This document shows, piece by piece, positions 4,001 through 42,159 of a stretch of 64,000 nt of DNA. Below the pieces are notes generated by a model. That model was not told the DNA's origin and searched no databases. It worked only from the letters and a program-made list of their open reading frames with translations. The DNA lies in assembly GCA_905214285.1 (NCBI GenBank), contig CAJMLI010000002.1:101015-165014 (forward strand), given 5' to 3'. The stretch is from an uncultured bacterium (lineage in GTDB: Bacteria > Actinomycetota > Coriobacteriia > Coriobacteriales > Coriobacteriaceae). Position numbers and translations under genes: made by a program. Numbering within the stretch: the first letter of the stretch is position 1; each line of letters opens with the position of its first letter.

Positions 4001-4155
4001 CGACCAAAAAAGGGACAGTTTATTTTGGCAGGTTTTTCCTGCGGTTTTGTCCTTTTAGCGAAAAGCGCCCCGCAACTGGCTCAATTCCAGTTGCGGGGCG
4101 CTTGCGTTCGCCCGGATAAAACCGACCAAAATAAACCTGTCCCTTTTTGGCGGGT
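4001..4155. repeat. Composite palindromic intergenic element: two inverted ~38-nt arms (aaccgaccaaaa.aaacctgtccctttttggc) around a perfect 14-bp-stem hairpin (gcgccccgcaactgg ctcaattc cagttgcggggcgc)
   Basis: Read directly from the sequence. A single related arm recurs at 52884-52918. Confidence 0.7.
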
Positions 4156-6588: not shown

Positions 6589-9030
6589 GTGGCAGAGCGT
6601 CCGACATACAAGCTCAGGTTTCTCGATCCCAAGAAGCGCTTTCCGGCGATGCCCGAGCAGCCAGCGGGACGCTCGTATGGCGTGGTCTGGAAACTCTTTG
6701 GCGAGGATCAGCATGAATCTTGCTATGTCGTCGAATTCGTTGGCAAAAGCCATGTGTCGCTTTTGGGCTACGTAAGCGTTTCGGGTGAGGTGTACAAGGT
6801 GGACCGCCCCGTTAGCGAGGCTCCGCTGCCCAACGATCCCGACATGGAACTGGTCCTTGACGAGTCGGACTCCGGTATTGGTGAGATTATGGTGAGGGGG
6901 GCAAACGGCACGATGCGCGCGTGCGCGCGAACCGTCGGCTCTCCCGAAGGCCCCATGCGCGAGCAGTCCGACCACGAGACATGGAATTCGACCCGCTCCC
7001 TTCCTTACGGCGAGTTCATGGCATCGATGTTCCTGCGCTACGTGATATTCGCTGACTCCGAAAATGCCATTGCGAGCACGGCGGACGCCGGCGGACTCGA
7101 CGAGGGTATGCAAAATGTTATCGACAAGATCAAGCTCGTAAAGTTGCCCGAGCCGGTCGAGGTGTTTTTGGGCTTTAACACGGCACCGCTCCCTGATGCT
7201 ATCGAGACGCTGCTTTACCGCGTTGACCATGCCGAGAATCCGAGCGGTATCGAGCGCTATGCCGCCGCCCTTATGAGTGAAATTGACTTGCCCCGCTTGC
7301 GCACCATCGCCGCTAAGTCCGAGATGAGCCTGGCTCGCATCGATCGCTCAAAGCTTTTCTATCTCAATTTTGATCGTAGTCTGCTGGAGCAGGACGAAAT
7401 TGACACGCTGCTCGCCATCGAGTGCCGTCTCAACCGCCTCTCCGGCATCCTTGAGCGCATCGGGGCTGGATTGGTCCCCGCGGCCTCGTCGCCGAGCCTT
7501 GAGGGCTGCGCGCTCTTCGATGCGTGGCATATCGCTAAGACGACCAACGATGTTCCCCGACTGCTCGATACGGCCTCGAGCGATAACCCGTGGGGCGAAC
7601 CGGGTACGGTGGCTTGCCAACCGGGCGGTGAGTGGGATGTGCGTACCCGCTTCGCGCGTATTGTCGAGGCGCTTAACGTGGTCACGCGGCTCGACTATAC
7701 CTATCGGGCAAACGTTGCCGAGGGGATCATGCTCGTTCGGTTTGGGCAGTCTGTCGTTGATGCCATGCCGCAACGTGAATACGACGCTCAAGATGACGCC
7801 TGGCACGAGCTGGACGAGGACACGCGCACGATCTGGGCCGCGGAGCACGATGCGCGCGTGGCGCTCACGCTTGCGGCAGCGTGTTTTGCCGCGGGCACCT
7901 GCATCACGCGCTGCTATGTGCAGATTGCTGCTCCCGACAGTGAGCAGGGCGAGCGCGTTGTTGCAACGTATTTCTTTGGGCGCGCGGCCTATCTGGCCGA
8001 TTGCGTGCCTGTCGCCAAGGATCTTGAGAGTATAGACATGGACGATATGCCGTGCAAGCGTGTGCTTGAGGCATATGAGTCAACCGCTCCGGAGACGATT
8101 GAACCTGCGGAGGTTCATGCTCGTCCGCGTGATGACCATCGCATGCTGCCGCCGGCGCTGCGCGATCTGCTGCTTGCCGATACGGCTGACGAGCTGGAGG
8201 TCATGGAAGAGGACGACGACCCATACGTGGCCCGTGTTGTTGAATTGCGCGAGCAGGCAAAAGTCGACCGTACAGGTGCTTTTGAAGGCTTTTCCCGTCT
8301 TGTTGAGGAGTTGGAGGCTAAGTGCGCCGTCGCCGAGCTTTTGGCGACAGGTCCGGTTCAAACGCAGTTTTGCGATAACCAGCTGGTGCGCATGGTGCTA
8401 CCGGTGTTGGAAGAAGACCGCTCTGTGCGAATCCTTCGTGCGCCCGATGCGCTGTACTTTGCCCAGCACGAGATCTGCAGCTTTTACGCCGAGCAAGAGG
8501 ACTTTGAACGAGCACTGCCCGAGGTGCGCCATCTTTACGATCTGGCGCGCTCGTCCATGCAGTCGCACTTTGCGCTCATCAACGTGCTTGCGCGTCTGGA
8601 GCGCTTTGACGAGATTATCGAGGTGGCGCGCCACGGCCTACGTATTGCCAGCGATCGTTCTGCAATCGGCTACCTGTTCTATCGCTTGGCGTTTGCCTAT
8701 TGGAATTGCGATCAGCTCGACCTGGCGCTGGCTTGTTACCGTCTGGTGCCGCGCGGCGAGGAGTCGGGCAGCAGCGCGCTGGAAGAAATGCAGGGCCTTA
8801 TGAACGAGATGGGCGTCAGCGAGCCTCCGACGTTCGAGGAAGCGGTCGAGACCATCCATAAGGCTGGACTAGAGCTGCCGCCAGTGTCCGCCGTGACGAA
8901 TCAGCTGGCAGATGCCGCTGTGCAACTGGTCGACAACGGTTTCTTTTTCCTGGCGCGCGGTTGTATCTTCCAAATGTGGCGCACCATGGGCAACGACGAG
9001 CTCGGCTCCCTCAACCGCTCGCTGGGGTAG
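6589..9030 (+). CDS. Large hypothetical cytoplasmic protein, 813 aa, C-terminal TPR-like helical repeats, no TM segments
   Basis: Long uninterrupted ORF. GTG start with AGGGTGA RBS; an alternative ATG lies at 6649. No family recognised by eye. The C-terminus has TPR-like helices (YLFYRLAFAYWNCDQLDLALACYRLV). Confidence 0.6.
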   Translation: MAERPTYKLRFLDPKKRFPAMPEQPAGRSYGVVWKLFGEDQHESCYVVEFVGKSHVSLLGYVSVSGEVYKVDRPVSEAPLPNDPDMELVLDESDSGIGEIMVRGANGTMRACARTVGSPEGPMREQSDHETWNSTRSLPYGEFMASMFLRYVIFADSENAIASTADAGGLDEGMQNVIDKIKLVKLPEPVEVFLGFNTAPLPDAIETLLYRVDHAENPSGIERYAAALMSEIDLPRLRTIAAKSEMSLARIDRSKLFYLNFDRSLLEQDEIDTLLAIECRLNRLSGILERIGAGLVPAASSPSLEGCALFDAWHIAKTTNDVPRLLDTASSDNPWGEPGTVACQPGGEWDVRTRFARIVEALNVVTRLDYTYRANVAEGIMLVRFGQSVVDAMPQREYDAQDDAWHELDEDTRTIWAAEHDARVALTLAAACFAAGTCITRCYVQIAAPDSEQGERVVATYFFGRAAYLADCVPVAKDLESIDMDDMPCKRVLEAYESTAPETIEPAEVHARPRDDHRMLPPALRDLLLADTADELEVMEEDDDPYVARVVELREQAKVDRTGAFEGFSRLVEELEAKCAVAELLATGPVQTQFCDNQLVRMVLPVLEEDRSVRILRAPDALYFAQHEICSFYAEQEDFERALPEVRHLYDLARSSMQSHFALINVLARLERFDEIIEVARHGLRIASDRSAIGYLFYRLAFAYWNCDQLDLALACYRLVPRGEESGSSALEEMQGLMNEMGVSEPPTFEEAVETIHKAGLELPPVSAVTNQLADAAVQLVDNGFFFLARGCIFQMWRTMGNDELGSLNRSLG

Positions 9031-31485: not shown

Positions 31486-34311
31486 ATGGGAGGAAACGTG
31501 GCTGAGAACCTAAGCAACCAGTCTGTACCCGAAGCCGCGGCGCGCGTCGCTGCCGTGGTCAACCGCCTCGTTAACCGAATCGGCTCGAATGCCGAATCCA
31601 AGGAGCGTCTCGCCGAGATCGAGATCCCCGAGGAGCTGCGCGACAATCTGGCGCTGTTCTTGCGCCTGGAGCGCCGTGTGCTTAGCGAGTATGATCCCGA
31701 GATCGCGGACCTGTTCGACAAGATTTTGACAGCCGAGATTGTGGCCAATGCCGGCAACCCCGGTAGCCGTGCTGCCGACGAGTCCGTCGACGAGCAGGGC
31801 GTGCCCACTGCCGACGAGCCCACCGCCGTGGCGTTTCGCGAGGTTGTCGATATGATCGACAGCCTGCCGCTCGATAAACAGCAGGTTATCGTCCGCGCCT
31901 TTACGAGCTTCTTCCATCTGGCAAACCTGTCGGAGGAGAATTACCGTGTGGCGCAGCTGCGCGAGCGCGAGGCCGGCGCATCGACCGATACCGAGGTCGA
32001 TCCTGCCAACGAACTCACCGTCGCCTATCACCAGTTGGTAAACGAGATGGGTGTCGAGGGCGCCAACGAGCTGCTCGGCAAGCTCGAGTTCCACCCTGTC
32101 TTTACCGCACATCCCACCGAGGCCCGTCGTAAGGCCGTCGAGGGCAAGATTCGCCGTATCTCCAACCTGCTGGAGGAGCGTCCGCGTCTGGGCGGTTCCG
32201 ACCTGGTGGAGAACGAGCGCCATATGCTGCAGGAGATCGACGCCCTGGTGCGTACGAGCCCCATCGCGCTCAAGAAACCCACGCCGGTCGAGGAAGCCGA
32301 TACCATCATCGACATCTTCGATAACACGCTGTTCGACGTTATTCCCGTCATCTATCGTCGTTTTGATGACTGGGTGCTGGGCGATAAGGCCGGCACCGTG
32401 CCGCCGCTGTGCCCGGCGTTCTTCCACCCCGGCAGCTGGATCGGTTCCGACCGCGACGGTAACCCGAACGTCACCGCCAAGGTGAGCCGCGAGGTCGCTG
32501 CCAAGTATTTCACCCATATGGTGCTCAAGCTCGAGGACAAGTGCCGCCGCATCGGCCGCAACCTCACGCTCGAGGCCACCTACAGCAAGCCGTCTGCCGA
32601 GCTCATCAACCTGTGGAACCATCAGGTCGAGATGAGCACTCAGTACACCGCACGTGCTGAACTAATCTCCGAGCACGAGCCGCATCGCGCCGTCATGCTC
32701 GTCATGGCCGACCGACTCAACGCCACCGTGCGTCGCATCACCGACACCATGTACCACAGCGCCGATGAGTTCCTGGAGGACCTGCGCGTCGTCCAGCGCT
32801 CGCTGGCCGCCTGCGGTGCCGTCCGTGCTGCCTACGGCCCGGTCCAGACCATCATCTGGCAGGTCGAGTCCTTCGGCTTCCACATGGTCGAGATGGAGTT
32901 CCGTCAGCACTCCGTGGTGCACGCCCGCGCCCTCAAGGATATCCACGAGAACGGTATCCATGGTGATCTGCAGCCCATGACGCGCGAGGTCATCGATACC
33001 TTCCGCGCTATCGGCTCCATCCAAAAGCGTTACGGCAAGAAGATGGCGCACCGCTACATCATCTCGTTCACCAAGAGCGCCCAGCATGTGGCCGACGTCT
33101 TTGAGCTTGCCCACCTGTCCTTTGCGCATGAGGAGGATGTCCCCGAGCTCGACGTGATCCCGCTGTTCGAGCAGCTCGAGGACCTCGAGGGCTGCGTCGA
33201 CGTGCTCGACCAGATGCTTACGCTGCCCGTGGTGCAAAAGCGCCTTGCCCAGACCAACCGTCGCATGGAGGTCATGCTGGGCTATTCCGACTCCTCCAAG
33301 GATGCCGGTCCTACCACGGCTATGCTCGCGCTGCACTCCGCACAGGAGCGTATTGCCAAGTGGGCCGAGAAGAACGATATCGATCTGGTGCTCATGCACG
33401 GTCGCGGCGGTGCCGTGGGCCGTGGTGGCGGCCCGGCCAACAAGGCCGTGCTGGCGCAGCCCAAGGGTTCGGTCAACTGCTTCTTTAAGCTCACCGAGCA
33501 GGGCGAGGTCATCTTTGCCCGTTACGGTAACCGCACGCTGGCTCAGCGCCATGTTGAGTCCGTTGCCGCTGCAACGCTTTTGCAGTCGGCCCCGAGCGTC
33601 GAGAAGACCAACACCGAGACCACGCAGAAGTTCTGGGATATGGCCGAGAAGCTCAACGCTGCAAGCCACGAGCGCTATCTGGATCTGCTGAACACCGAGG
33701 ACTTTACACCGTGGTTCTCGACCGTGACGCCGCTGACCGAGGTCGGTCTGCTGCCGATCGGCTCGCGCCCGGCCAAGCGCGGTCTGGGTGCCAAGTCGCT
33801 CGACGACCTGCGTACCATTCCGTGGATTTTCAGCTGGAGCCAGGCTCGCATTAACCTGGCCGCTTGGTACGGTCTGGGTACCGCCTGCGAGCAGCTGGGC
33901 GATCTTGACCAGCTCAAGGCTGCCTACCAGGAGTGGCCGTTCTTCCGCACGTTCATCGACAACATCGAGATGTCGATCGCTAAGACCGACCAGCGCATCG
34001 CCAAGATGTATCTGCACCTGGGCGATCGCCAGGATCTGTCCAAGAAGGTCTTCACCGAGATGCAGCTCACGCGTAAGTGGGTCCTTGCCATCGTCGGTGA
34101 CGAGTGGCCGCTACAGCGCCGTCGCGTGCTTGGCTGCGCCGTTCGCGTGCGTAACCCCTATGTCGACGCCCTGTCCATCGCTCAGGTCCGCGCCCTTCGC
34201 GAGGTGCGTATGAACCAGGACGAGATGGCCGAGGAGAAGAAGGCCGAGTACATGAGCCTGATTCTTTCGACTGTGACCGGCGTCTCGGCAGGATTGCAGA
34301 ACACGGGGTAA
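31486..34311 (+). CDS. ppc: Phosphoenolpyruvate carboxylase Ppc
   Basis: VFTAHPTEARR, GYSDSSKDAGPTTA, C-terminal LQNTG. The start is ambiguous (ATG 31486 or GTG 31498). Confidence 0.9.
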   Translation: MGGNVAENLSNQSVPEAAARVAAVVNRLVNRIGSNAESKERLAEIEIPEELRDNLALFLRLERRVLSEYDPEIADLFDKILTAEIVANAGNPGSRAADESVDEQGVPTADEPTAVAFREVVDMIDSLPLDKQQVIVRAFTSFFHLANLSEENYRVAQLREREAGASTDTEVDPANELTVAYHQLVNEMGVEGANELLGKLEFHPVFTAHPTEARRKAVEGKIRRISNLLEERPRLGGSDLVENERHMLQEIDALVRTSPIALKKPTPVEEADTIIDIFDNTLFDVIPVIYRRFDDWVLGDKAGTVPPLCPAFFHPGSWIGSDRDGNPNVTAKVSREVAAKYFTHMVLKLEDKCRRIGRNLTLEATYSKPSAELINLWNHQVEMSTQYTARAELISEHEPHRAVMLVMADRLNATVRRITDTMYHSADEFLEDLRVVQRSLAACGAVRAAYGPVQTIIWQVESFGFHMVEMEFRQHSVVHARALKDIHENGIHGDLQPMTREVIDTFRAIGSIQKRYGKKMAHRYIISFTKSAQHVADVFELAHLSFAHEEDVPELDVIPLFEQLEDLEGCVDVLDQMLTLPVVQKRLAQTNRRMEVMLGYSDSSKDAGPTTAMLALHSAQERIAKWAEKNDIDLVLMHGRGGAVGRGGGPANKAVLAQPKGSVNCFFKLTEQGEVIFARYGNRTLAQRHVESVAAATLLQSAPSVEKTNTETTQKFWDMAEKLNAASHERYLDLLNTEDFTPWFSTVTPLTEVGLLPIGSRPAKRGLGAKSLDDLRTIPWIFSWSQARINLAAWYGLGTACEQLGDLDQLKAAYQEWPFFRTFIDNIEMSIAKTDQRIAKMYLHLGDRQDLSKKVFTEMQLTRKWVLAIVGDEWPLQRRRVLGCAVRVRNPYVDALSIAQVRALREVRMNQDEMAEEKKAEYMSLILSTVTGVSAGLQNTG

Positions 34312-34339: not shown

Positions 34340-34451
34340 CCATCAGTTTACTTTTAGGCACGTCCTCGGACATGCAAGAAGCCCTCGCTGCGCACTTCGT
34401 GCGGCGAGGGCTTCTTGCGTCCTGCGGAGTGTGCCTAAAAGTAAACTGATG
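34340..34451. repeat. 112-bp palindromic repeat element, copy 1: 22-bp perfect outer inverted repeat (ccatcagtttacttttaggcac / gtgcctaaaagtaaactgatgg) around a ~68-bp core (cgtcctcggacatgcaagaagccctcgctgcgcacttcgtgcggcgagggcttcttgcgtcctgcggagt) carrying a nested hairpin
   Basis: Read directly from the sequence. A related copy lies at 36813-36932. Confidence 0.8.
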
Positions 34452-34727
34452 GGGCCCTACGATGTCCGGTCTTCGGCGGATTACTGCTGGGGAAAAGATA
34501 GCGCGCTTCGCGCGTTTTGGATGGGGTCTGTCTCGGCGGCGCGTTTGGCGCTTCTCGCCTTGCGACTGTAGCGCCCGCGGTCCTCATTGGGACCACGGCC
34601 GTTTTGTTATGGGTCAAATATGAACGTTGTGTTAATGAGTCGGTGGACGGTGGTGTTTTTCGGTGAGCGGCGTATCCTTCCAACGGTTTGACTAGTGTGT
34701 CAGTTGAAAGGAAGAGGGCGCTCGTCA

Positions 34728-36005
34728 ATGTTTGAATGTGAACTACCGTTTGACCACAAGACGTTGCATCTGGAGCTCGAGGACAAGAACTTCGCGGGTG
34801 TGATGGAAGGTCATCAAAACGAGTTTAAGACTACAAAATCGCAGGAAGAGCTGGTAGAGGAGTCGCTTGCCAACCCTTATGGCTCGCCTTCGCTCGAGGA
34901 GCTTTGTGCTGGCAAAAAGGATATCGTAATTATCAGCTCTGACCATACGCGTCCCGTTCCTTCGCGTGTGACGATGCCTATTCTGCTGCATCACATTCAT
35001 GCCGCTGCGCCCGAGGCCCGTGTGCGTATTTTGGTTGCTACGGGTATGCACCGTCCGTCGACGCACGAGGAGCTCGTCAATAAGTATGGCGAGGACATCG
35101 TTGCCAACGAGGAAATCGTTATGCATGTCGCGACCGACGACAGCATGATGAAAAAGATCGGCACCCTGCCTTCTGGTGGCGAGTGCATCATCAACAAGAT
35201 TGCGGCCGATTGCGATCTGCTGCTTGCCGAGGGCTTTATTGAGCCGCACTTCTTTGCCGGTTTCTCTGGTAGCCGCAAGTCCGTCCTGCCTGGCATCGCC
35301 AGCTACAAGACCATCATGTACAACCACAACGGTCAGTTTGTGAACGATTCCCACTCGCGTGCCGGCAACCTGTGCCACAACCACGTGAGCGAGGACATGT
35401 TTGCCGCCGCCGAGATGGCTCACCTTGCCTTTGTGCTCAACGTGGTGCTCAACGGCAAGCACGAGGTCATTGGCTCCTTTGCCGGCGACATCCACAAGGC
35501 GCACGAGGCTGGCTGCGAGTTCGTGAAGAGCCTTGCCGGCGTTGAGCCCGTCGAGTGCGAGATCGCCATTACCACTAACGGCGGCTACCCCCTCGATCAG
35601 AACATCTATCAGGCTGTGAAGGGCATGTGCGCTGCCGAGGCCACGCTTCCCGAGGGCGGCGTGATCATCGACGTCGCCGGTTGTGCCGACGGTCACGGCG
35701 GCGAGGGCTTCTATCACAACATCGCCGACAACGATCCGGCAGAGTTTGAGCGCGCCTGTATCGATCGTCCTAAGGACGAGACCCTGCCCGATCAGTGGAC
35801 GAGCCAGATCTTTGCCCGCATCCTGGCGCATCACCCCGTGATCATGGTCACCGACCTGTGCGATCACCAGATGCTCAAGGATATGCACATGACGCCGGTC
35901 AACACCCTCGAGGAGGCGCTCAAGCTCGCCTTTGAGATGAAGGGTGCCGACGCCAAGGTCGCCGTCATCCCCGATGGCCTGGGTGTTGTCGTCGCGCAGC
36001 ACTAG
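34728..36005 (+). CDS. larA: Lactate racemase LarA family protein (nickel-pincer-nucleotide-dependent racemase/epimerase)
   Basis: LarA/DUF2088 architecture. SDHTRPVPS motif, conserved His/Lys positions (KSVLPG, HNHV), about 425 aa. RBS AAGGAAGAGGG precedes ATG 34728. Confidence 0.7.
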   Translation: MFECELPFDHKTLHLELEDKNFAGVMEGHQNEFKTTKSQEELVEESLANPYGSPSLEELCAGKKDIVIISSDHTRPVPSRVTMPILLHHIHAAAPEARVRILVATGMHRPSTHEELVNKYGEDIVANEEIVMHVATDDSMMKKIGTLPSGGECIINKIAADCDLLLAEGFIEPHFFAGFSGSRKSVLPGIASYKTIMYNHNGQFVNDSHSRAGNLCHNHVSEDMFAAAEMAHLAFVLNVVLNGKHEVIGSFAGDIHKAHEAGCEFVKSLAGVEPVECEIAITTNGGYPLDQNIYQAVKGMCAAEATLPEGGVIIDVAGCADGHGGEGFYHNIADNDPAEFERACIDRPKDETLPDQWTSQIFARILAHHPVIMVTDLCDHQMLKDMHMTPVNTLEEALKLAFEMKGADAKVAVIPDGLGVVVAQH

Positions 36006-36054
36006 TGCGCGGCTTAAACGAATCGTTTATAACCGACAAGAAAGATAAGGTTTT

Positions 36055-36786
36055 ATGCTTACCAAACTCCTCTGCGAATTCGGCGCGACGGCCCTCATGA
36101 TCGTCTTTGGCGTGGGCGTGCACTGCGATACCGTGCTCAAAGGCACCAAGTATCAGGGCTCCGGCCATATGTTTGCCATCACCACCTGGTCTTTTGGCAT
36201 CTCGGTCTGCCTGTTTGTCTTTGGCGGCGCCGTGTGCATGAACCCCGCTATGGTGCTTGCCCAGTGCATCGTCGGTCTGGTGCCGTGGGGCAACTGCATC
36301 CCCTTCATGCTTGCCGATATGCTCGGCGGCTTTGTGGGTGCCGTGATCGCTTGGTTTATGTATGCCGATGAGTTCAAGGCTTCCGAGGGTGTCGTCGATC
36401 CCATTGCCCAGCGCAACATCTTCTCGACCAACCCCACCACCGAGGGTACGAACTATGCCCGCAACTTCTTCTGCGAGGCAATCTGCACCTTTGTGTTCAT
36501 TAGCGCCATCCTTGCTGCTGCTAGCCGTGCTGGTGAGGACGTTTTGATGCTCGCCATCTGCGTCGGCCTGATTGTCTGGGCCGTTGGCATGGGCATGGGC
36601 GGCATCACCGGCTTCGCTATGAACCAGGCACGTGACCTTGGTCCCCGCCTTGCTTATCAGGTGCTGCCGATTAAGAACAAGGCTGACAACAACTGGAAGT
36701 ATGGTCTGCTTGTTCCTGGCATCGCGCCGTTTGTCGGTGCTATTGTCGCCGCGCTGTTTGTGCACGGTTTCTTGGGCATGTTCTAG
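36055..36786 (+). CDS. MIP-family channel (aquaglyceroporin, LarD/GlpF-like)
   Basis: Six TM helices. First NPA box intact (CMNPAMV); second box reads NQA (AMNQARDLGPR). Adjacent to larA, as with the lactic-acid channel LarD in Lactobacillus. Confidence 0.8.
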   Translation: MLTKLLCEFGATALMIVFGVGVHCDTVLKGTKYQGSGHMFAITTWSFGISVCLFVFGGAVCMNPAMVLAQCIVGLVPWGNCIPFMLADMLGGFVGAVIAWFMYADEFKASEGVVDPIAQRNIFSTNPTTEGTNYARNFFCEAICTFVFISAILAAASRAGEDVLMLAICVGLIVWAVGMGMGGITGFAMNQARDLGPRLAYQVLPIKNKADNNWKYGLLVPGIAPFVGAIVAALFVHGFLGMF

Positions 36787-36812
36787 TCGAAGGACGGCTC
36801 TATAAGGTTCGG

Positions 36813-36932
36813 GCTCGGCAAGGGTTTACTTTCCAACGCGTCCTCGGACATGCAAAAAGGCTCGCTGCGCACTTTGTGCGGCGAGCCTTTTTGCGTCCTG
36901 CGGAATGCGTTGGAAAGTAAACCCTTGCCGAG
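36813..36932. repeat. 120-bp palindromic repeat element, copy 2: 26-bp outer inverted repeat (gctcggcaagggtttactttccaacgc / gcgttggaaagtaaacccttgccgagc) around the same core as copy 1 (cgtcctcggacatgcaaaaaggctcgctgcgcactttgtgcggcgagcctttttgcgtcctgcggaatg)
   Basis: Read directly from the sequence. Confidence 0.8.
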
Positions 36933-37109
36933 CCCTGGGCATTCTTGGCTGTGTTCGAACAAGCAACCCAACATATATATCTGAATTTGGATGTGAGGGG
37001 CGCTTTGTTTTTGGGTGCCCTTACAAGAAAGCGTGACTTGGGGATGGGATGGGCACTTTGCTTTTTAGTGCCCTGAGATGGGGGCGAGACTTTGGAATGA
37101 GAGGCTAAC

Positions 37110-37649
37110 TTAGGTGAAGAGGGGCTGTATGGCTGATAGGTAGTCTTTGGCTACGTCGGCTTTGTCTGCTTGGAAGTTGTGCCAGGCCCACCATTGGACC
37201 ATTCCTACGAAGCTTGAGGCTATGTGGTGTAGTAGGAAACTGCGGTCCATGGTGCCGGCGGGGCCTGCGGGGTCGACGGGGACGGTTTCGGCTGCGCGCG
37301 ACATGATGGTCTTGCGGAGACAGTCGGCGAAGACGCGTGAGCCGGCGCCGGCTACGAGGGCTCGAACGCCCTGGCGGCGTTCCCAGAGATTGTTGAGGAT
37401 ATGCTCGACCTGCACGAGTGGGTCGTCGAGCGGTGTGCCATCGTCGTCAAGAGCGTGGGTGCAGATGTCGCTCACGAGTTCGGACAGTAGGTCGTCTTTG
37501 CTCTTAAAGAGACCGTAGAATGTCGCGCGGCCTACGTGAGCGCGAGCGATGATGTCGCCGACGGTGATCTTGCCGTAATCTTCCTCGCGCAGGAGCTCGG
37601 AGAACGCCGCAACGATGGCGGCGCGGCTTTTTGCCTTGCGGGCATCCAT
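37110..37649 (-). CDS. TetR/AcrR family transcriptional regulator
   Basis: N-terminal HTH (AAIVAAFSELLREEDYGKITVGDIIARAHVGRATFYGLFKSKDDLL). True start is M72 of the listed ORF; upstream of it the frame is Arg-rich nonsense overlapping larC. Confidence 0.8.
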   Translation of the reverse strand: MDARKAKSRAAIVAAFSELLREEDYGKITVGDIIARAHVGRATFYGLFKSKDDLLSELVSDICTHALDDDGTPLDDPLVQVEHILNNLWERRQGVRALVAGAGSRVFADCLRKTIMSRAAETVPVDPAGPAGTMDRSFLLHHIASSFVGMVQWWAWHNFQADKADVAKDYLSAIQPLFT

Positions 37650-37651
37650 GG

Positions 37652-38572
37652 CTATGCGTCCGCGTGAACGAGCAGGCAGCGGAGCGTGCCGGAGCAACCC
37701 TCGTAGGGGCGTTTGCCGGCGCCGTAGCCGACAGCTTCGATGCGGTAGCGTGAGGGCAGTTGGTCGGACGTACGCAGGGCGGTGACGATGGCGGCGCCTG
37801 TGGGCGTTACGAGCTCGCCAGCGACCGGTGCAGGCGTGAGAGCGATATTGCCCGCCTGGCACAGGTTGACGACAGCGGGGACGGGAATGGGCATGAGGCC
37901 GTGTGCACAGCGGATGGTTCCGTGGCCCTCGGAGAGCGACTCGACCACGATGTCCTCAATGCCCAGGTCATCGAGGCAGATGGCGACAGAGCAGACGTCG
38001 ACGATGGAGTCGATGGCGCCCACCTCGTGGAACATGACGGTCTCGGGCGTTTTGCCGTGAGCCTTGGCCTCGGCAGCGGCGAGTGCGGTAAAGATGGCGA
38101 GGGCGCGACGCTTGGCGCCATCGCTTAGCTGCGAGCCATCGATAATGGCGGTGACGTCCGCCAAAGACCGGTGGTGATGGTGGTGGGCGTGATGATGCCC
38201 CTCGTGGCCATGGCCGTGGATCTCATGGTCATGGTCGTGTGTGTGCTCGTGCTCATGCTCGTCATGGTCATGATGATGGTGGTGCTCATGCTCATGCATA
38301 TGCTCGACAGCTGCTTCGTTGCCGTAGAGCCAGGCCATATCGTGGTCGTGGTTCTCGAGCTCCTCTGCCAGCTGAACGTCAAAGTCGCAGGCGTCGATGC
38401 CGTGCTTGTTTACGCGCGTGACGGCGATCGAAAAGCCATCGACCGGCAGCGTGGCGAGCTGTTCGCGCAGCTGCTCCTCACTGGCATCCAGGTCGAGCAG
38501 GGCCGCAACGGTCATATCGCCGCTGATGCCCGAGGTGCCGTCGATGATAAGCGTGTGCTGATGGTTGGACAT
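37652..38572 (-). CDS. larC: LarC N-terminal (DUF111/LarC1) domain protein with a His-rich linker; the C-terminal CTP-hydrolysing domain appears to be absent
   Basis: N-terminus TLIIDGTSGISGDMTVAALLDL matches the LarC/DUF111 start. A long HEHEHHHHHDHDEHEHEHTHDHDHEIHGHGHEGHHHAHHHHH tract follows. The ORF ends 2 nt from the tetR start, at about 306 aa. Confidence 0.65.
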   Translation of the reverse strand: MSNHQHTLIIDGTSGISGDMTVAALLDLDASEEQLREQLATLPVDGFSIAVTRVNKHGIDACDFDVQLAEELENHDHDMAWLYGNEAAVEHMHEHEHHHHHDHDEHEHEHTHDHDHEIHGHGHEGHHHAHHHHHRSLADVTAIIDGSQLSDGAKRRALAIFTALAAAEAKAHGKTPETVMFHEVGAIDSIVDVCSVAICLDDLGIEDIVVESLSEGHGTIRCAHGLMPIPVPAVVNLCQAGNIALTPAPVAGELVTPTGAAIVTALRTSDQLPSRYRIEAVGYGAGKRPYEGCSGTLRCLLVHADA

Positions 38573-38582
38573 GGGATGCTCC

Positions 38583-39365
38583 TTAGCGGGCGCAGGGCGT
38601 GCCGGCGCTCAGATGATTGATAAGACTTGCCTGGTAGGCGGCACCAAAGCCGTTGTCGATATTGACGACCGAGACGCCGCTGGCGCAGGAGTTGAGCATG
38701 GCGAGCAGCGCGGCCACGCCACCAAAGTTCGCGCCGTAGCCCACGCTGGTGGGAACGGCGATGACCGGGCAACTCACCAGGCCGCCGATGACGCTCGCCA
38801 GGGCGCCTTCCATGCCGGCGATGGCGATGACCACCTGCGCCTGGGCAAGTTCCTCGGCATGCGCAAGCAGGCGGTGCAGCCCGGCGACGCCCACGTCGTA
38901 AAGGCGATCGACTTCGTTGCCATAGAACTCGGCCGTCAACGCGGCTTCCTCGGCGACGGGCAGGTCGCTCGTGCCGGCGCAGGCGACAACGATGCGTCCG
39001 TTGCCGGTAGGGGAGGGCTTGCCGCCCACGAGGGCGAGCTGCGCGTCCGGGACATATCCCAGGTCGATGCCGTTGCCGAGAAGCTCCGAGGTGCGGGCGG
39101 CCTTTTTGGCGTCCAGGCGCGTGACCAGGATGCGCTCCTGGCCGGCATCGCGCAGCGCTTTGATAATGGCGGCAATCTGATCGGCGGTTTTACCGGCACC
39201 GTAGACAACCTCGCCGGCTCCCTGGCGCACCCCGCGCGAAAGATCGAGCTGCGCAAAGCCCAAATCGGCGGTCGGAGCCGTCTGGATGCGCGTGAGGGCG
39301 ACGGCCGGGGTGACTGCCCCGCCGGCAACATCGCTCAGTAACTGCTCAAGATCTCGCTTATCCAT
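38583..39365 (-). CDS. larB: LarB (PurE-like carboxylase for nickel-pincer cofactor synthesis)
   Basis: PurE/AIR-carboxylase-like C-terminal half (IVVACAGTSDLPVAEEA...VIAIAGMEGALASVIGGLVSCPVIAVPTSVGYG) plus a LarB N-extension. ATG 39365 with GAAGGGAA RBS; an alternative GTG lies at 39398. Confidence 0.7.
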   Translation of the reverse strand: MDKRDLEQLLSDVAGGAVTPAVALTRIQTAPTADLGFAQLDLSRGVRQGAGEVVYGAGKTADQIAAIIKALRDAGQERILVTRLDAKKAARTSELLGNGIDLGYVPDAQLALVGGKPSPTGNGRIVVACAGTSDLPVAEEAALTAEFYGNEVDRLYDVGVAGLHRLLAHAEELAQAQVVIAIAGMEGALASVIGGLVSCPVIAVPTSVGYGANFGGVAALLAMLNSCASGVSVVNIDNGFGAAYQASLINHLSAGTPCAR

Positions 39366-39479
39366 ATATGTTCCCTTCGACGGCGCAAAGTCTAGCACTC
39401 AAAGGGTATGTTTCCGAACATTAAGACAAAATTGTTCGGAAACTATAGGACAGACTGATTCAATTGTTAGACGGATCGA

Positions 39480-40115
39480 CTAGTCACGCAGGATGATGTC
39501 CATGGCGAGCATCAGATTGCGCTCGTCGATGGCAAACGGGGCGGCCTCGCGCGTCTTGGGCTTGGCACAAAACGCGATGCCCGTGCCCGCGGCCTGAATC
39601 ATGGGGATGTCGTTGGCACCGTCGCCGATCGCGACGGTGTGGGCCATGTCGACGCCGCACTCAACTGCCCAGTCCAGCAGCTGGATGAGCTTGGACTCCT
39701 TGGTCACAATGTCGGCAGCCAACTTACCGGTGAGCTTGCCGCCTACGACCTCCAGACGGTTGGCCAGGCAAAAGTCGATTCCCGCGGCGGCCACGATCTT
39801 GTCGGCAACCTCGTGGAAGCCGCCACTTACGACGCCGACCTTCCAGCCCTTGCTGTGCGCCGAGCGCACAAGCTCCAGCGCGCCGGGGGTAAACGTCACG
39901 CGCTCAAAGGTGCGCTCGAACACGCTCTCGTCCAAGCCGGCAAGCAGCCCCACGCGCTCCTCGAGCGCTTGCTTAAAGTCAAGCTCGCCGCGCATGGCGC
40001 GCTCGGTGATCTGCGCCACTTGCTTGCCCACGCCGGCTTCCTCGCCCAACAGGTCGATGACCTCCTGGTTGATGAGCGTGGAGTCGATATCCATAACGAT
40101 GAGGCGTGCAGTCAT
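39480..40115 (-). CDS. serB: Phosphoserine phosphatase SerB (HAD family)
   Basis: HAD motif I VMDIDSTL, motif II/III (SGGF..., IGDGANDIPMIQAAGTGIAF). Start at the internal ATG (M24 of the ORF). Confidence 0.75.
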   Translation of the reverse strand: MTARLIVMDIDSTLINQEVIDLLGEEAGVGKQVAQITERAMRGELDFKQALEERVGLLAGLDESVFERTFERVTFTPGALELVRSAHSKGWKVGVVSGGFHEVADKIVAAAGIDFCLANRLEVVGGKLTGKLAADIVTKESKLIQLLDWAVECGVDMAHTVAIGDGANDIPMIQAAGTGIAFCAKPKTREAAPFAIDERNLMLAMDIILRD

Positions 40116-40371
40116 GGCGGGCCTTTCCAAGTGCAGTTGTATTGGGGCACATTGTCGCACGTGACGAGCGCGGGCGGGTGTCACGGCGCGTCAATTGTTT
40201 CGTCTCCGTCAAGTCTTTGGGCAGGAGCCACTTTTTCGCGGCACATCGACGCGAGTGCGATAAGATAGAACGCCATGTCTGGCTGCGCGGTTTACGCAGG
40301 CTGGGCAAATCTGTACGACGCCGCCCGGAACGACACGGGGCGGCACAGATCCATAAAGGAGGATCACTGGT

Positions 40372-42159
40372 ATGAGCCAGACCCGTCCCATCGATGAGCA
40401 TTCCATGCACACCCGTACCTGCGGCGAGCTTCGCTTCGAGAACGTGGGCGAAGAGGTCACCCTCACCGGTTGGGTGAGCCGTCGCCGCGACCACGGCGGC
40501 CTTATCTTCTGCGACCTTCGCGACCGTGAGGGCATCACGCAGCTCACCTTCGACCCCGAGCACTCCGACGGCGACGCCTTTAAGATCGCCGAGACCATGC
40601 GTCCCGAGTGGCCCATCAAGATTCACGGCGTCGTGCGCGCCCGTGGCGAGGAGACCACCAACACCAAGCTCGCGACTGGCGAGATCGAGGTCCTGACCGA
40701 CCACGCCGAGGTGCTCAACACGTCCGTCACCCCGCCGTTCCAGATCGAGGACGGCATCGAGACCAGCGAGGACACCCGCCTGCGCTATCGCTATCTGGAC
40801 CTTCGTCGTCCCGAGATGATGGCCAACCTCAAGCTGCGCTCCGACTTTACCTTTGCCATTCGCGAGGCGCTGCACAACCGTGAGTTCATGGAGGTCGAGA
40901 CGCCCTCCCTGTTCAAGTCCACGCCCGAGGGCGCCCGCGACTTCATCGTCCCCAGCCGCATCCAGCCGGGCAACTTCTACGCCCTGCCGCAGTCCCCGCA
41001 GCTCCTGAAGCAGCTGCTTATGGTCGGTGGCGTCGAGCGCTACTATCAGGTTGCCAAGTGCTTCCGCGACGAGGACTTGCGTGCCGACCGTCAGCCCGAG
41101 TTCACCCAGGTCGATATCGAGATGTCCTTCGTGGACCAGAACGACGTTATGAGCGCGCTCGAAGAGGTTCTTGCCGATGCCTTCGGCCGCATGGGTGTCG
41201 AGATGCCCACGCCGCTGCGTCGCATGAACTACTGGGAGGCCATGGACACCTATGGCTCCGACAAGCCCGATACCCGCTATGGCATGCACTTGGTCGACCT
41301 GACCGACATCTTCGCCAACTCCAAGTTCAAGGTCTTTGCGACTGCCGCGAACGAGGAGGGCTCTGTCGTCAAGGCCATCAACGCCAAGGGCGCCGGTGCC
41401 TGGGCTCGCGCCAAGATCGATAAGCTTGCCGGCGTGGCTTCCACGTTTGGCGCCAAGGGCCTTGCCTGGATCGCCTTCCGCGAGGACGGCTCCATCAACA
41501 GCCCCATCGTCAAGTTCTTCTCGGACGAGGAGATGGCTGCCCTGCGCGAGCGCATGGACGTCGAGCCCGGCGACCTTGTGATGTTCGCCGCCGGCCCGCG
41601 CCTGCTCTCCGACGAGATCCTGGGCGGCATGCGTTCCCACATGGCTAACGCGCTCGAGATCAAGCGCGAGGGCCACGACTTCTTGTGGGTCGTCAACTTC
41701 CCGCTGTTCCACTGGGACGAGGACCGCAAGGCTTACGCTGCCGAGCACCAGCCCTTCACCCTGCCGACCGAGACCGACATCGCCAAGATCGAGGCCGACC
41801 CGCTGGCAGCCGGTTCCTGCACCTACGACTTTGTCATGGACGGCTTTGAGGCCGGCGGCGGCGGTATGCGTATCCACAACGCCGAAATGCAGATGTCCAT
41901 GCTCAAGCTCCTGGGCTTTACCGAGGAGCGCGCCGAGTCGCAGTTCGGCTTCCTCATGGAGGCTCTCAAGTTTGGTGCGCCCCCGATGGGCGGCTTCGCC
42001 CTGGGCCTGGACCGCGTGTGCATGCTGCTCACCGGCTCCGACTCCATCCGCGACGTCATGGCGTTCCCCAAGACGGCCAGCGGCTCCGACCTCATGTCGG
42101 GCGCCCCGAGTGCCGTTTCCGGCGCCCAGCTCAAGGACGTCAGCCTGCGCCTGATGTAG
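40372..42159 (+). CDS. aspS: Aspartyl-tRNA synthetase AspS
   Basis: OB-fold N-terminus, class II motifs (FRDEDLRADRQPEFTQVD, GGGMRIHNAEMQ, GFALGLDRV), 595 aa. Confidence 0.9.
   Translation: MSQTRPIDEHSMHTRTCGELRFENVGEEVTLTGWVSRRRDHGGLIFCDLRDREGITQLTFDPEHSDGDAFKIAETMRPEWPIKIHGVVRARGEETTNTKLATGEIEVLTDHAEVLNTSVTPPFQIEDGIETSEDTRLRYRYLDLRRPEMMANLKLRSDFTFAIREALHNREFMEVETPSLFKSTPEGARDFIVPSRIQPGNFYALPQSPQLLKQLLMVGGVERYYQVAKCFRDEDLRADRQPEFTQVDIEMSFVDQNDVMSALEEVLADAFGRMGVEMPTPLRRMNYWEAMDTYGSDKPDTRYGMHLVDLTDIFANSKFKVFATAANEEGSVVKAINAKGAGAWARAKIDKLAGVASTFGAKGLAWIAFREDGSINSPIVKFFSDEEMAALRERMDVEPGDLVMFAAGPRLLSDEILGGMRSHMANALEIKREGHDFLWVVNFPLFHWDEDRKAYAAEHQPFTLPTETDIAKIEADPLAAGSCTYDFVMDGFEAGGGGMRIHNAEMQMSMLKLLGFTEERAESQFGFLMEALKFGAPPMGGFALGLDRVCMLLTGSDSIRDVMAFPKTASGSDLMSGAPSAVSGAQLKDVSLRLM

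Follow-up and report, generated by a model that had tools for sequence, protein, structure and literature searches.

In the 64,000-nucleotide stretch of uncultured Coriobacteriaceae DNA analysed here (contig CAJMLI010000002.1; hereafter the window, with a G+C content of about 60%), the nickel-insertase gene larC encodes the LarC1 half of its enzyme and not the LarC2 half. Database matches to its product bear the names Collinsella aerofaciens or Collinsella sp., and to our knowledge LarC is the only enzyme that forms the carbon-nickel bond of the nickel-pincer cofactor. On balance, the short gene is probably a genuine, lineage-wide and selectively maintained LarC1-only subunit of the cyclometallase, neither an assembly error nor a pseudogene, that arose by deletion of LarC2 and whose missing steps are provided in trans. 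Its product would most likely still bind nickel and insert it, as the subunit that finishes the cofactor of LarA, the intact lactate racemase encoded next to it, with sulfur insertion by LarE, and activation by LarC2 with cytidine triphosphate (CTP) if that is still needed, presumably supplied from outside the 64 kb.

A preliminary description of this DNA had recognised a 306-residue open reading frame (ORF) with the LarC motif SGISGDM and a 45-residue His/Glu/Asp-rich tract, and had judged it to stop at the LarC1/LarC2 boundary with the CTP-binding part missing; all of this holds (coordinates in Table 1). The motif occupies residues 14-20. Positions 1-234 of the 375 in Pfam profile PF01969 are matched (E 1e-79) and positions 235-375 are not. 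NCBIfam, which now treats LarC as two models, TIGR00299.2 (LarC1) and NF052512 (LarC2), returns 193 bits for 'nickel_LarC1' against a cut-off of 90 and no match to 'nickel_LarC2', whereas full-length relatives (the database protein P0122 and the LarC of locus L129) match both. Alignment to full-length LarC, a check that had been proposed, covers residues 18-240 of the Moorella thermoacetica chain (PDB 12bi) and places the C-terminus at about residue 240; the interdomain linker of that enzyme comprises residues 236-248 (PMC13510736). The AlphaFold model (predicted local distance difference test, pLDDT, 86.5; predicted template modelling score, pTM, 0.83) is confident outside the His-rich tract, and its last strand, residues 296-304, is ordered. 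Because the profile matches, the alignment to 12bi and a model with an ordered final strand agree, the product is a complete LarC1 domain with nothing beyond it; the flexible linker and the LarC2 domain, with its CTP binding and hexamer core, are absent. A fold search of the model against a PDB library older than the LarC electron cryomicroscopy (cryo-EM) entries gave no match at E <= 0.001, in line with the published remark that no homologue of the LarC1 fold is known (PMC13510736).

With the full-length LarC of Lactiplantibacillus plantarum and M. thermoacetica (PDB 12bi; PMC13510736) the product shares SGISGDM, the His-rich nickel region, the acidic pocket and its His residues, and in those systems too the gene lies in an operon with larB and next to larA; what the window gene lacks is the 13-residue linker and the LarC2 domain, and it stops where the linker begins. 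Ten pocket and His residues are all kept, namely D19, R135, E168, H172, H182, E183, D188, D192, H224 and E253 (by alignment D15, R71, E104, H108, H118, E119, D124, D128, H160 and E187 of M. thermoacetica); each is conserved in 56-61 of 61 aligned sequences, and every strictly conserved one is present. The His cluster and acidic pocket of LarC1 are reported to be essential, alanine substitutions of pocket residues having been tested (PMC13510736). The His-rich tract itself contains 26 His and 38 His/Glu/Asp among its 45 residues, and pLDDT falls below 50 at residues 89-127. Given that 36 of the 306 residues of the product are His and that tract length varies freely, the protein might have been repurposed for nickel binding or storage, with no part in cofactor maturation. 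Almost no credence can be given to this, however, as selection keeps the acidic pocket (E168, E183, D188, D192, E253), beyond the tract, and larC stays in an operon with larB and beside an intact larA.

The length of the His-rich region (38171-38353, minus strand) varies among Collinsella homologues through in-frame insertions and deletions, the proteins measuring 287-330 residues, and in the database sequence P0001 some 80 residues, spanning the tract, are duplicated.

The origin of the short gene is best approached through relatives in which larC is complete. The nearest full-length LarC in an exhaustive search of 50%-identity representatives is P0122 (487 residues, 71% identical), on whose contig the order is larB-larC(full)-tetR, with LarB 77% and TetR 58% identical to those of the window. 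Two further contigs have this order, and larB-larC(LarC1+LarC2)-tetR is the arrangement in loci L089, L090 and L099. A metagenome scan with a clade-specific LarC2 alignment yielded about 30 loci (L100-L129; 65-71% G+C) of the form larB-larC(full)-tetR; in many of them larE lies upstream of larB if the contig is long enough to include that region. The 600 matches listed by a scan of genome collections with a general LarC2 alignment contain no close relatives. Among the metagenome loci, L125 and L129 carry a divergent nikABCDE-like nickel transporter upstream of larE and, as in the window, a convergent larD-larA downstream of tetR; their amino acid identities to the window are 90% for LarA, 87% for LarD, 74% for LarB, 64% for LarC1 and 66% for TetR. 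Exact-sequence look-up identified these two as Paratractidigestivibacter faecalis, and L100, L103, L118 and L122 as Parolsenella spp., in which the larE-larB-larC-tetR arrangement is found and larD-larA is not adjacent. The P. faecalis island encodes a full-length LarC of 464 residues (WP_117204243.1), a short LarE whose gene immediately precedes larB and, divergently, the nikABCDE transporter, none of which is in the window; compared with it, the Collinsella island is without the nickel transporter, larE, the linker and LarC2. Because these relatives carry larB-larC(full)-tetR in the same order, tetR is an ancestral member of the operon following larC rather than an insertion, and its product shares 58-69% identity with the TetR encoded after full-length larC in L089, L090, L099 and L125-L129. 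The preliminary description had noted tetR between larC and larA/larD, where it belongs to the original gene order.

At the site where full-length relatives hold the linker and LarC2, larC of the window ends directly before tetR, as had been described: the junction reads ...GTT CAC GCG GAC GCA TAG cc ATG GAT GCC CGC AAG (...VHADA*, then MDARK), and the diverged Collinsella loci L094 and L095 have the same junction, TAG or TAA followed by two nucleotides and ATG. In the P. faecalis-type larC of L129 the linker starts ...GAG GTT GCG GAC GCC CGC... (EVADAR) and the gene ends ...GAG GCC GAC GCC TGA-TG GAC GCC CGC AAG (EADA*; tetR MDARK). These two places, the linker start and the larC 3' end, hold 9-bp direct repeats, GC[GC]GACGCC (that is, GCGGACGCC and GCCGACGCC), 477 bp apart and in frame, and the repeats are also present in L126 and L127. 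A repeat-to-repeat deletion would be predicted to give ...EVADA* and then tetR, which agrees with ...VHADA* in the window. On the account preferred here, the ancestor had a full-length larC within an island (nikABCDE)-larE-larB-larC-tetR / larD-larA, of a type kept intact in the gut Atopobiaceae member P. faecalis and, without adjoining larD-larA, in Parolsenella. About 480 bp, comprising the interdomain linker and the entire CTP-binding LarC2 domain, were then deleted in frame in the Collinsella lineage, most likely by recombination or slippage between the 9-bp direct repeats, leaving ...ADA-stop right before tetR.

One metagenome contig, L119 (OMDV01001668.1), resembles a Collinsella strain whose LarC is full-length. 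Its identity to the window is 95-97%, with an aspartyl-tRNA synthetase 99.5% identical in amino acids, until the conserved larC1 coding stretch GELVTPTGAAIV (positions about 4040-4060), past which it is 97-98% identical to the Parolsenella locus L122 (LarC2-tetR-dipeptidase), the switch lying inside a conserved 40-nucleotide stretch. It is either a real recombinant strain or a chimera; given the sharp switch in identity, it was treated as a probable chimeric assembly and not used as evidence.

The short form is common to the whole lineage. Among the 120 best matches to the larC product, those aligning over the whole query are 287-321 residues long and end ...GTLRC[LM]LV[HD][AV]DA; others, of up to 333 residues, align partly owing to differences in His-tract length, and the few markedly longer products, each a single sequence, reflect internal duplication or frameshift fusion with TetR. 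Two clusters of the short protein, P0002 and P0006, hold 26068 and 13891 members. The exact product occurs on metagenome contigs of up to 351 kb in the order serB-larB-larC1-tetR/larD-larA, and lar gene order is identical on every Collinsella contig fetched. When the window was compared with two diverged Collinsella genomes (synonymous divergence, dS, 0.2-0.5), the ratio of nonsynonymous to synonymous divergence (dN/dS) was 0.08-0.13 for larC1, 0.05-0.11 for larB, 0.08-0.12 for tetR, 0-0.10 for larD and 0.03 for larA, and none of the five genes has a frameshift or internal stop in the three genomes. The corresponding values for LarC1 within the full-length genes of Parolsenella and P. faecalis are 0.17-0.38. 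By this measure the short larC is under purifying selection, with no sign of relaxation.

The preliminary description had also raised the prospect that the pathway is partly decayed, in which case the lar genes would be non-functional relics left over once LarE and LarC2 had been lost. In comparison with P. faecalis the island does lack two required functions and the nickel transporter, but decay is now very improbable. The dN/dS range of 0.03-0.13 over five genes was obtained at dS of up to 0.5, the frameshifted longer products are isolated sequences, and a candidate operator upstream of larB is conserved. Further, LarA is very close to L. plantarum LarA over its entire length (599 bits), and its catalytic His pair, cofactor-tethering Lys and nickel-ligand His (H108, H174, K184 and H200) are identical, so that it still looks like an enzyme requiring the thiocarboxylate nickel cofactor. 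Because the short form is shared by thousands of sequences, purifying selection acts on it and the cofactor-binding residues of LarA are intact, the lar pathway is not decaying.

Neither missing part lies within the window. A tblastn search whose query was LarC2 from the closest full-length homologue reached a best E of 0.055, in an unrelated antisense region. The reported absence of larE was borne out: no SGGxDS PP-loop occurs in any frame of the window, and neither three verified long-type LarE nor the short LarE of the nearest relatives gave a tblastn match. A frameshifted larC2 remnant, which had been proposed to lie in or after tetR, was not detected there by tblastn at relaxed thresholds, and the 324-bp larD/tetR spacer returned only noise for LarC2 and LarE alike. 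Of some 30 other ORFs of the window compared with Pfam, none is related to LarE or LarC2 and none encodes a nickel transporter. In L. plantarum, larC1 is likewise an ORF of about 270-300 residues ending at the domain boundary, but larC2 directly follows and is made as a fusion through programmed ribosomal frameshifting, whereas in the window tetR follows and no larC2 ORF downstream of or overlapping larC1 exists in any frame. Programmed frameshifting or readthrough from larC1 into tetR was considered and rejected: the LarC1-TetR fusions P0004, P0020 and P0075 are single sequences carrying insertions or deletions and are for that reason regarded as errors or rare variants.

The preliminary description offered dispersed or split genes as its other explanation, and here the outcome is divided. 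LarC1 recurs elsewhere as a separate polypeptide, and dispersal is therefore plausible; the searches made found no Collinsella LarC2 or LarE. In Laedolimicola intestinihominis (L077) larC1 and larC2 lie 2.7 kb apart, a Eubacterium sp. (L083) has larB-larC1-larE-larC2, and in a Clostridiales locus (L017) LarC2 stands alone next to ftsZ and a NUDIX gene, the surrounding 7-10 kb being free of lar genes. Of 150 representative clusters, 97 combine LarC1 and LarC2 and at least 15 are LarC1-only ORFs ending at the domain boundary. Two of the latter were inspected: the 2.6-kb contig of L096 (G+C 53%) carries a larC1-only gene but no LarC2 or LarE, and L097/L098 (G+C 50-53%) have a larA homologue, larB and a larC1-only gene, LarC2 and LarE both being absent within 6 kb. 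The Firmicutes loci L077, L083, L017, L096 and L097 thus share with Collinsella a LarC1 that is its own polypeptide, but they belong to unrelated lineages (LarC1 43-50% identical), and L077 and L083 have larC2 within 3 kb, where none was found for Collinsella. A DUF308 membrane protein adjoins the LarC1-only gene in two unrelated lineages (L096, 1613-2194; L097, 4257-4904).

On this basis Collinsella might have an ordinary split enzyme, with LarC2 and LarE encoded elsewhere on the chromosome and LarC1 and LarC2 associating non-covalently, an explanation that overlaps with the one preferred here and adds the claim that LarC2 exists. The separate NCBIfam models and the finding that isolated LarC2 still forms a hexamer (PMC13510736) are in keeping with it. 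Nevertheless, it must be considered possible but doubtful. LarC2 is fused in frame to LarC1 in 75 of the 80 genome loci found through LarC2. A search for short LarC2-containing proteins gave 129 matches, all in clusters of at most 70 members and none named Collinsella, as against LarC1 clusters of the order of 10^4 members. The LarC2 matches of the clade-specific metagenome scan were fused larC at 74-89% identity, and none except that on the hybrid contig L119 had a Collinsella context.

Alternatively, LarC1 alone may suffice, such that natural LarC1-only nickel insertases finish the nickel-pincer cofactor without LarC2, in Collinsella and independently in at least two other lineages (L096, L097), either without CTP activation or with an unrelated activator protein. 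Purifying selection on the LarC1-only gene at least as strong as that on LarC1 in full-length genes, the retention of all conserved pocket residues, the recurrence of larB with larC1-only genes in unrelated lineages (with a larA homologue in L097/L098; larC1-only in L096) and the lack of an abundant stand-alone LarC2 in the short-protein search all point this way. In the 2026 cryo-EM model, however, LarC2 first CMPylates the substrate and LarC1 then inserts the nickel; the activity of LarC, nickel insertion into P2TMN, depends on CTP in both enzymes studied and is lowered by substitutions in the CTP site (PMC13510736). Moreover, the searches covered the window rather than the whole genome, and Collinsella could possess another, full-length LarC paralogue or a LarC2 that forms part of a larger protein. 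That LarC2 is dispensable is accordingly unlikely.

Several observations weigh against the interpretation favoured here, in which a maintained LarC1 subunit relies on functions supplied in trans. No LarE or LarC2 has been located for Collinsella, so that supply in trans is unproven, and a canonical stand-alone LarC2 looks unlikely because LarC2 clusters are small and none is named Collinsella while the lineage itself is very abundant. Deletion or alteration of the LarC1-LarC2 linker dramatically cuts the activity of M. thermoacetica LarC (PMC13510736), which argues against an untethered or LarC2-less enzyme working well. Finally, the position of M. thermoacetica H116 is Met in the larC product, yet Met is also found there in full-length L099 and P0231; the H72 position is Ser, and both positions are variable in the family.

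The search for LarE requires separate comment. A profile search found no Collinsella protein among the best 120 matches, which came from Atopobiaceae, Olsenella-like bacteria and a Firmicutes group of 51% G+C adjoining the rpoB operon, but this carries little weight: the profile derives from long-type LarE and would overlook short forms, and the short LarE of the nearest relatives is only 37-42% identical to it. These short proteins (221-245 residues) are encoded beside larB at 5520-6254 of L129 in P. faecalis and 5646-6308 of L122 in Parolsenella. The P. faecalis protein, WP_117204245.1, lies barely above the NCBIfam LarE cut-off (152.1 against 150 bits), and NCBI names them 'adenine nucleotide alpha-hydrolase family protein' (P. 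faecalis) and 'hypothetical protein' (Parolsenella); given such names, surveys based on annotation would miss them. In the literature searched no link of Collinsella to LarC or LarE was found, and supplements of LarA-superfamily papers do not include Collinsella.

An abundant human gut bacterium has retained LarC1 under strong selection long after losing the linker and LarC2, and its larC amounts to a natural experiment, in which LarC1 either cooperates, untethered, with a LarC2 encoded far away or works by itself; both results would bear directly on mechanism. Were LarC1-only insertases to need no LarC2, this would contradict the present view, which holds both CMPylation by LarC2 and a tethering linker to be necessary. 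The scoring of lar genes in gut metagenomes is affected as well, as a Collinsella 'LarC' match denotes half an enzyme and the LarE of its nearest relatives is generically annotated.

Table 1. Features of the lar region (positions in the window)
Feature	Position	Strand	Description
larA, nickel-dependent lactate racemase	34728..36005	plus	425 aa; NCBIfam Ni_dep_LarA NF033504, 600.5 bits (cut-off 460)
larD, lactic acid channel	36055..36786	plus	243 aa; NCBIfam LarD equivalog, 418.5 bits (cut-off 390)
tetR	37110..37649	minus	179 aa; third gene of the larB-larC-tetR operon; convergent on larD
Deletion junction	37647..37654	minus	larC1 stop TAG 37654-37652, 2-nt spacer, tetR ATG 37649-37647
larC (larC1-only)	37652..38572	minus	306 aa; nickel-binding and nickel-insertion half of LarC; ends at the first interdomain-linker residues
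His/Glu/Asp-rich tract	38171..38305	minus	larC residues 90-134; disordered in the model
larB	38583..39365	minus	260 aa; ATG at 39365, MDKRDLEQ...; NCBIfam LarB equivalog NF033503, 285.7 bits (cut-off 175)
Perfect inverted repeat GTTTCCGAACA-N12-TGTTCGGAAAC	39410-39443		abuts the -10 box of the larB promoter-like site
Promoter-like site	39470-39442	minus	upstream of larB
SerB-like HAD phosphatase	39480-40184	minus	upstream of larB

Gene calls agree on the size of LarB, which is 74-77% identical to LarB of the relatives. The TetR product matches PF00440 TetR_N (E 5.6e-10) and, weakly, TetR_C_8. The preliminary description had ascribed to it an N-terminal extension (37650-37862), but this is an artefact of ORF calling, since gene callers, on eight related contigs, give 179 residues starting MDARK, and orthologues begin MDKRK or MDARK. 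Elsewhere in the window, an ORF on the plus strand at 6589-9030 (813 residues) has coding-like composition and no Pfam match at E <= 1e-4.

Upstream of larB, the exact half-site of the inverted repeat is unique in the 64 kb, and the repeat is kept in the diverged Collinsella loci L094 and L095 though the surrounding spacer diverges; it is a plausible candidate for the operator of TetR, whose gene is co-transcribed.

Across the three Collinsella genomes, dS in the lar genes (34728-39365) is mostly 0.3-0.5, as against 0.15-0.26 in the flanking ppc and aspS (31486-34311 and 40372-42159). As lar dS lies above that of the flanks and LarA shares 90% identity with its counterpart in P. faecalis, which belongs to a different family, the pattern suggests exchange of the lar island among gut Coriobacteriia.

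Two palindromic elements of 115-125 bp, about 80-85% identical to one another, flank larA-larD at 34340-34452 and 36811-36935, and their outer arms co-vary such that the hairpin is kept in each copy. The core CGTCCTCGGACATGCAA occurs at these two sites only in the 64 kb, where 0.31 occurrences would be expected by chance. Both copies in L001 and L003-L006, and one copy in L002 and L095, carry it at matching positions, with no exact match in L094 or in the P. faecalis and Parolsenella loci, which are without the elements flanking larA-larD in Collinsella. The inner hairpin with its T-run looks like a bidirectional terminator, and the element might mark larA-larD as a cassette.

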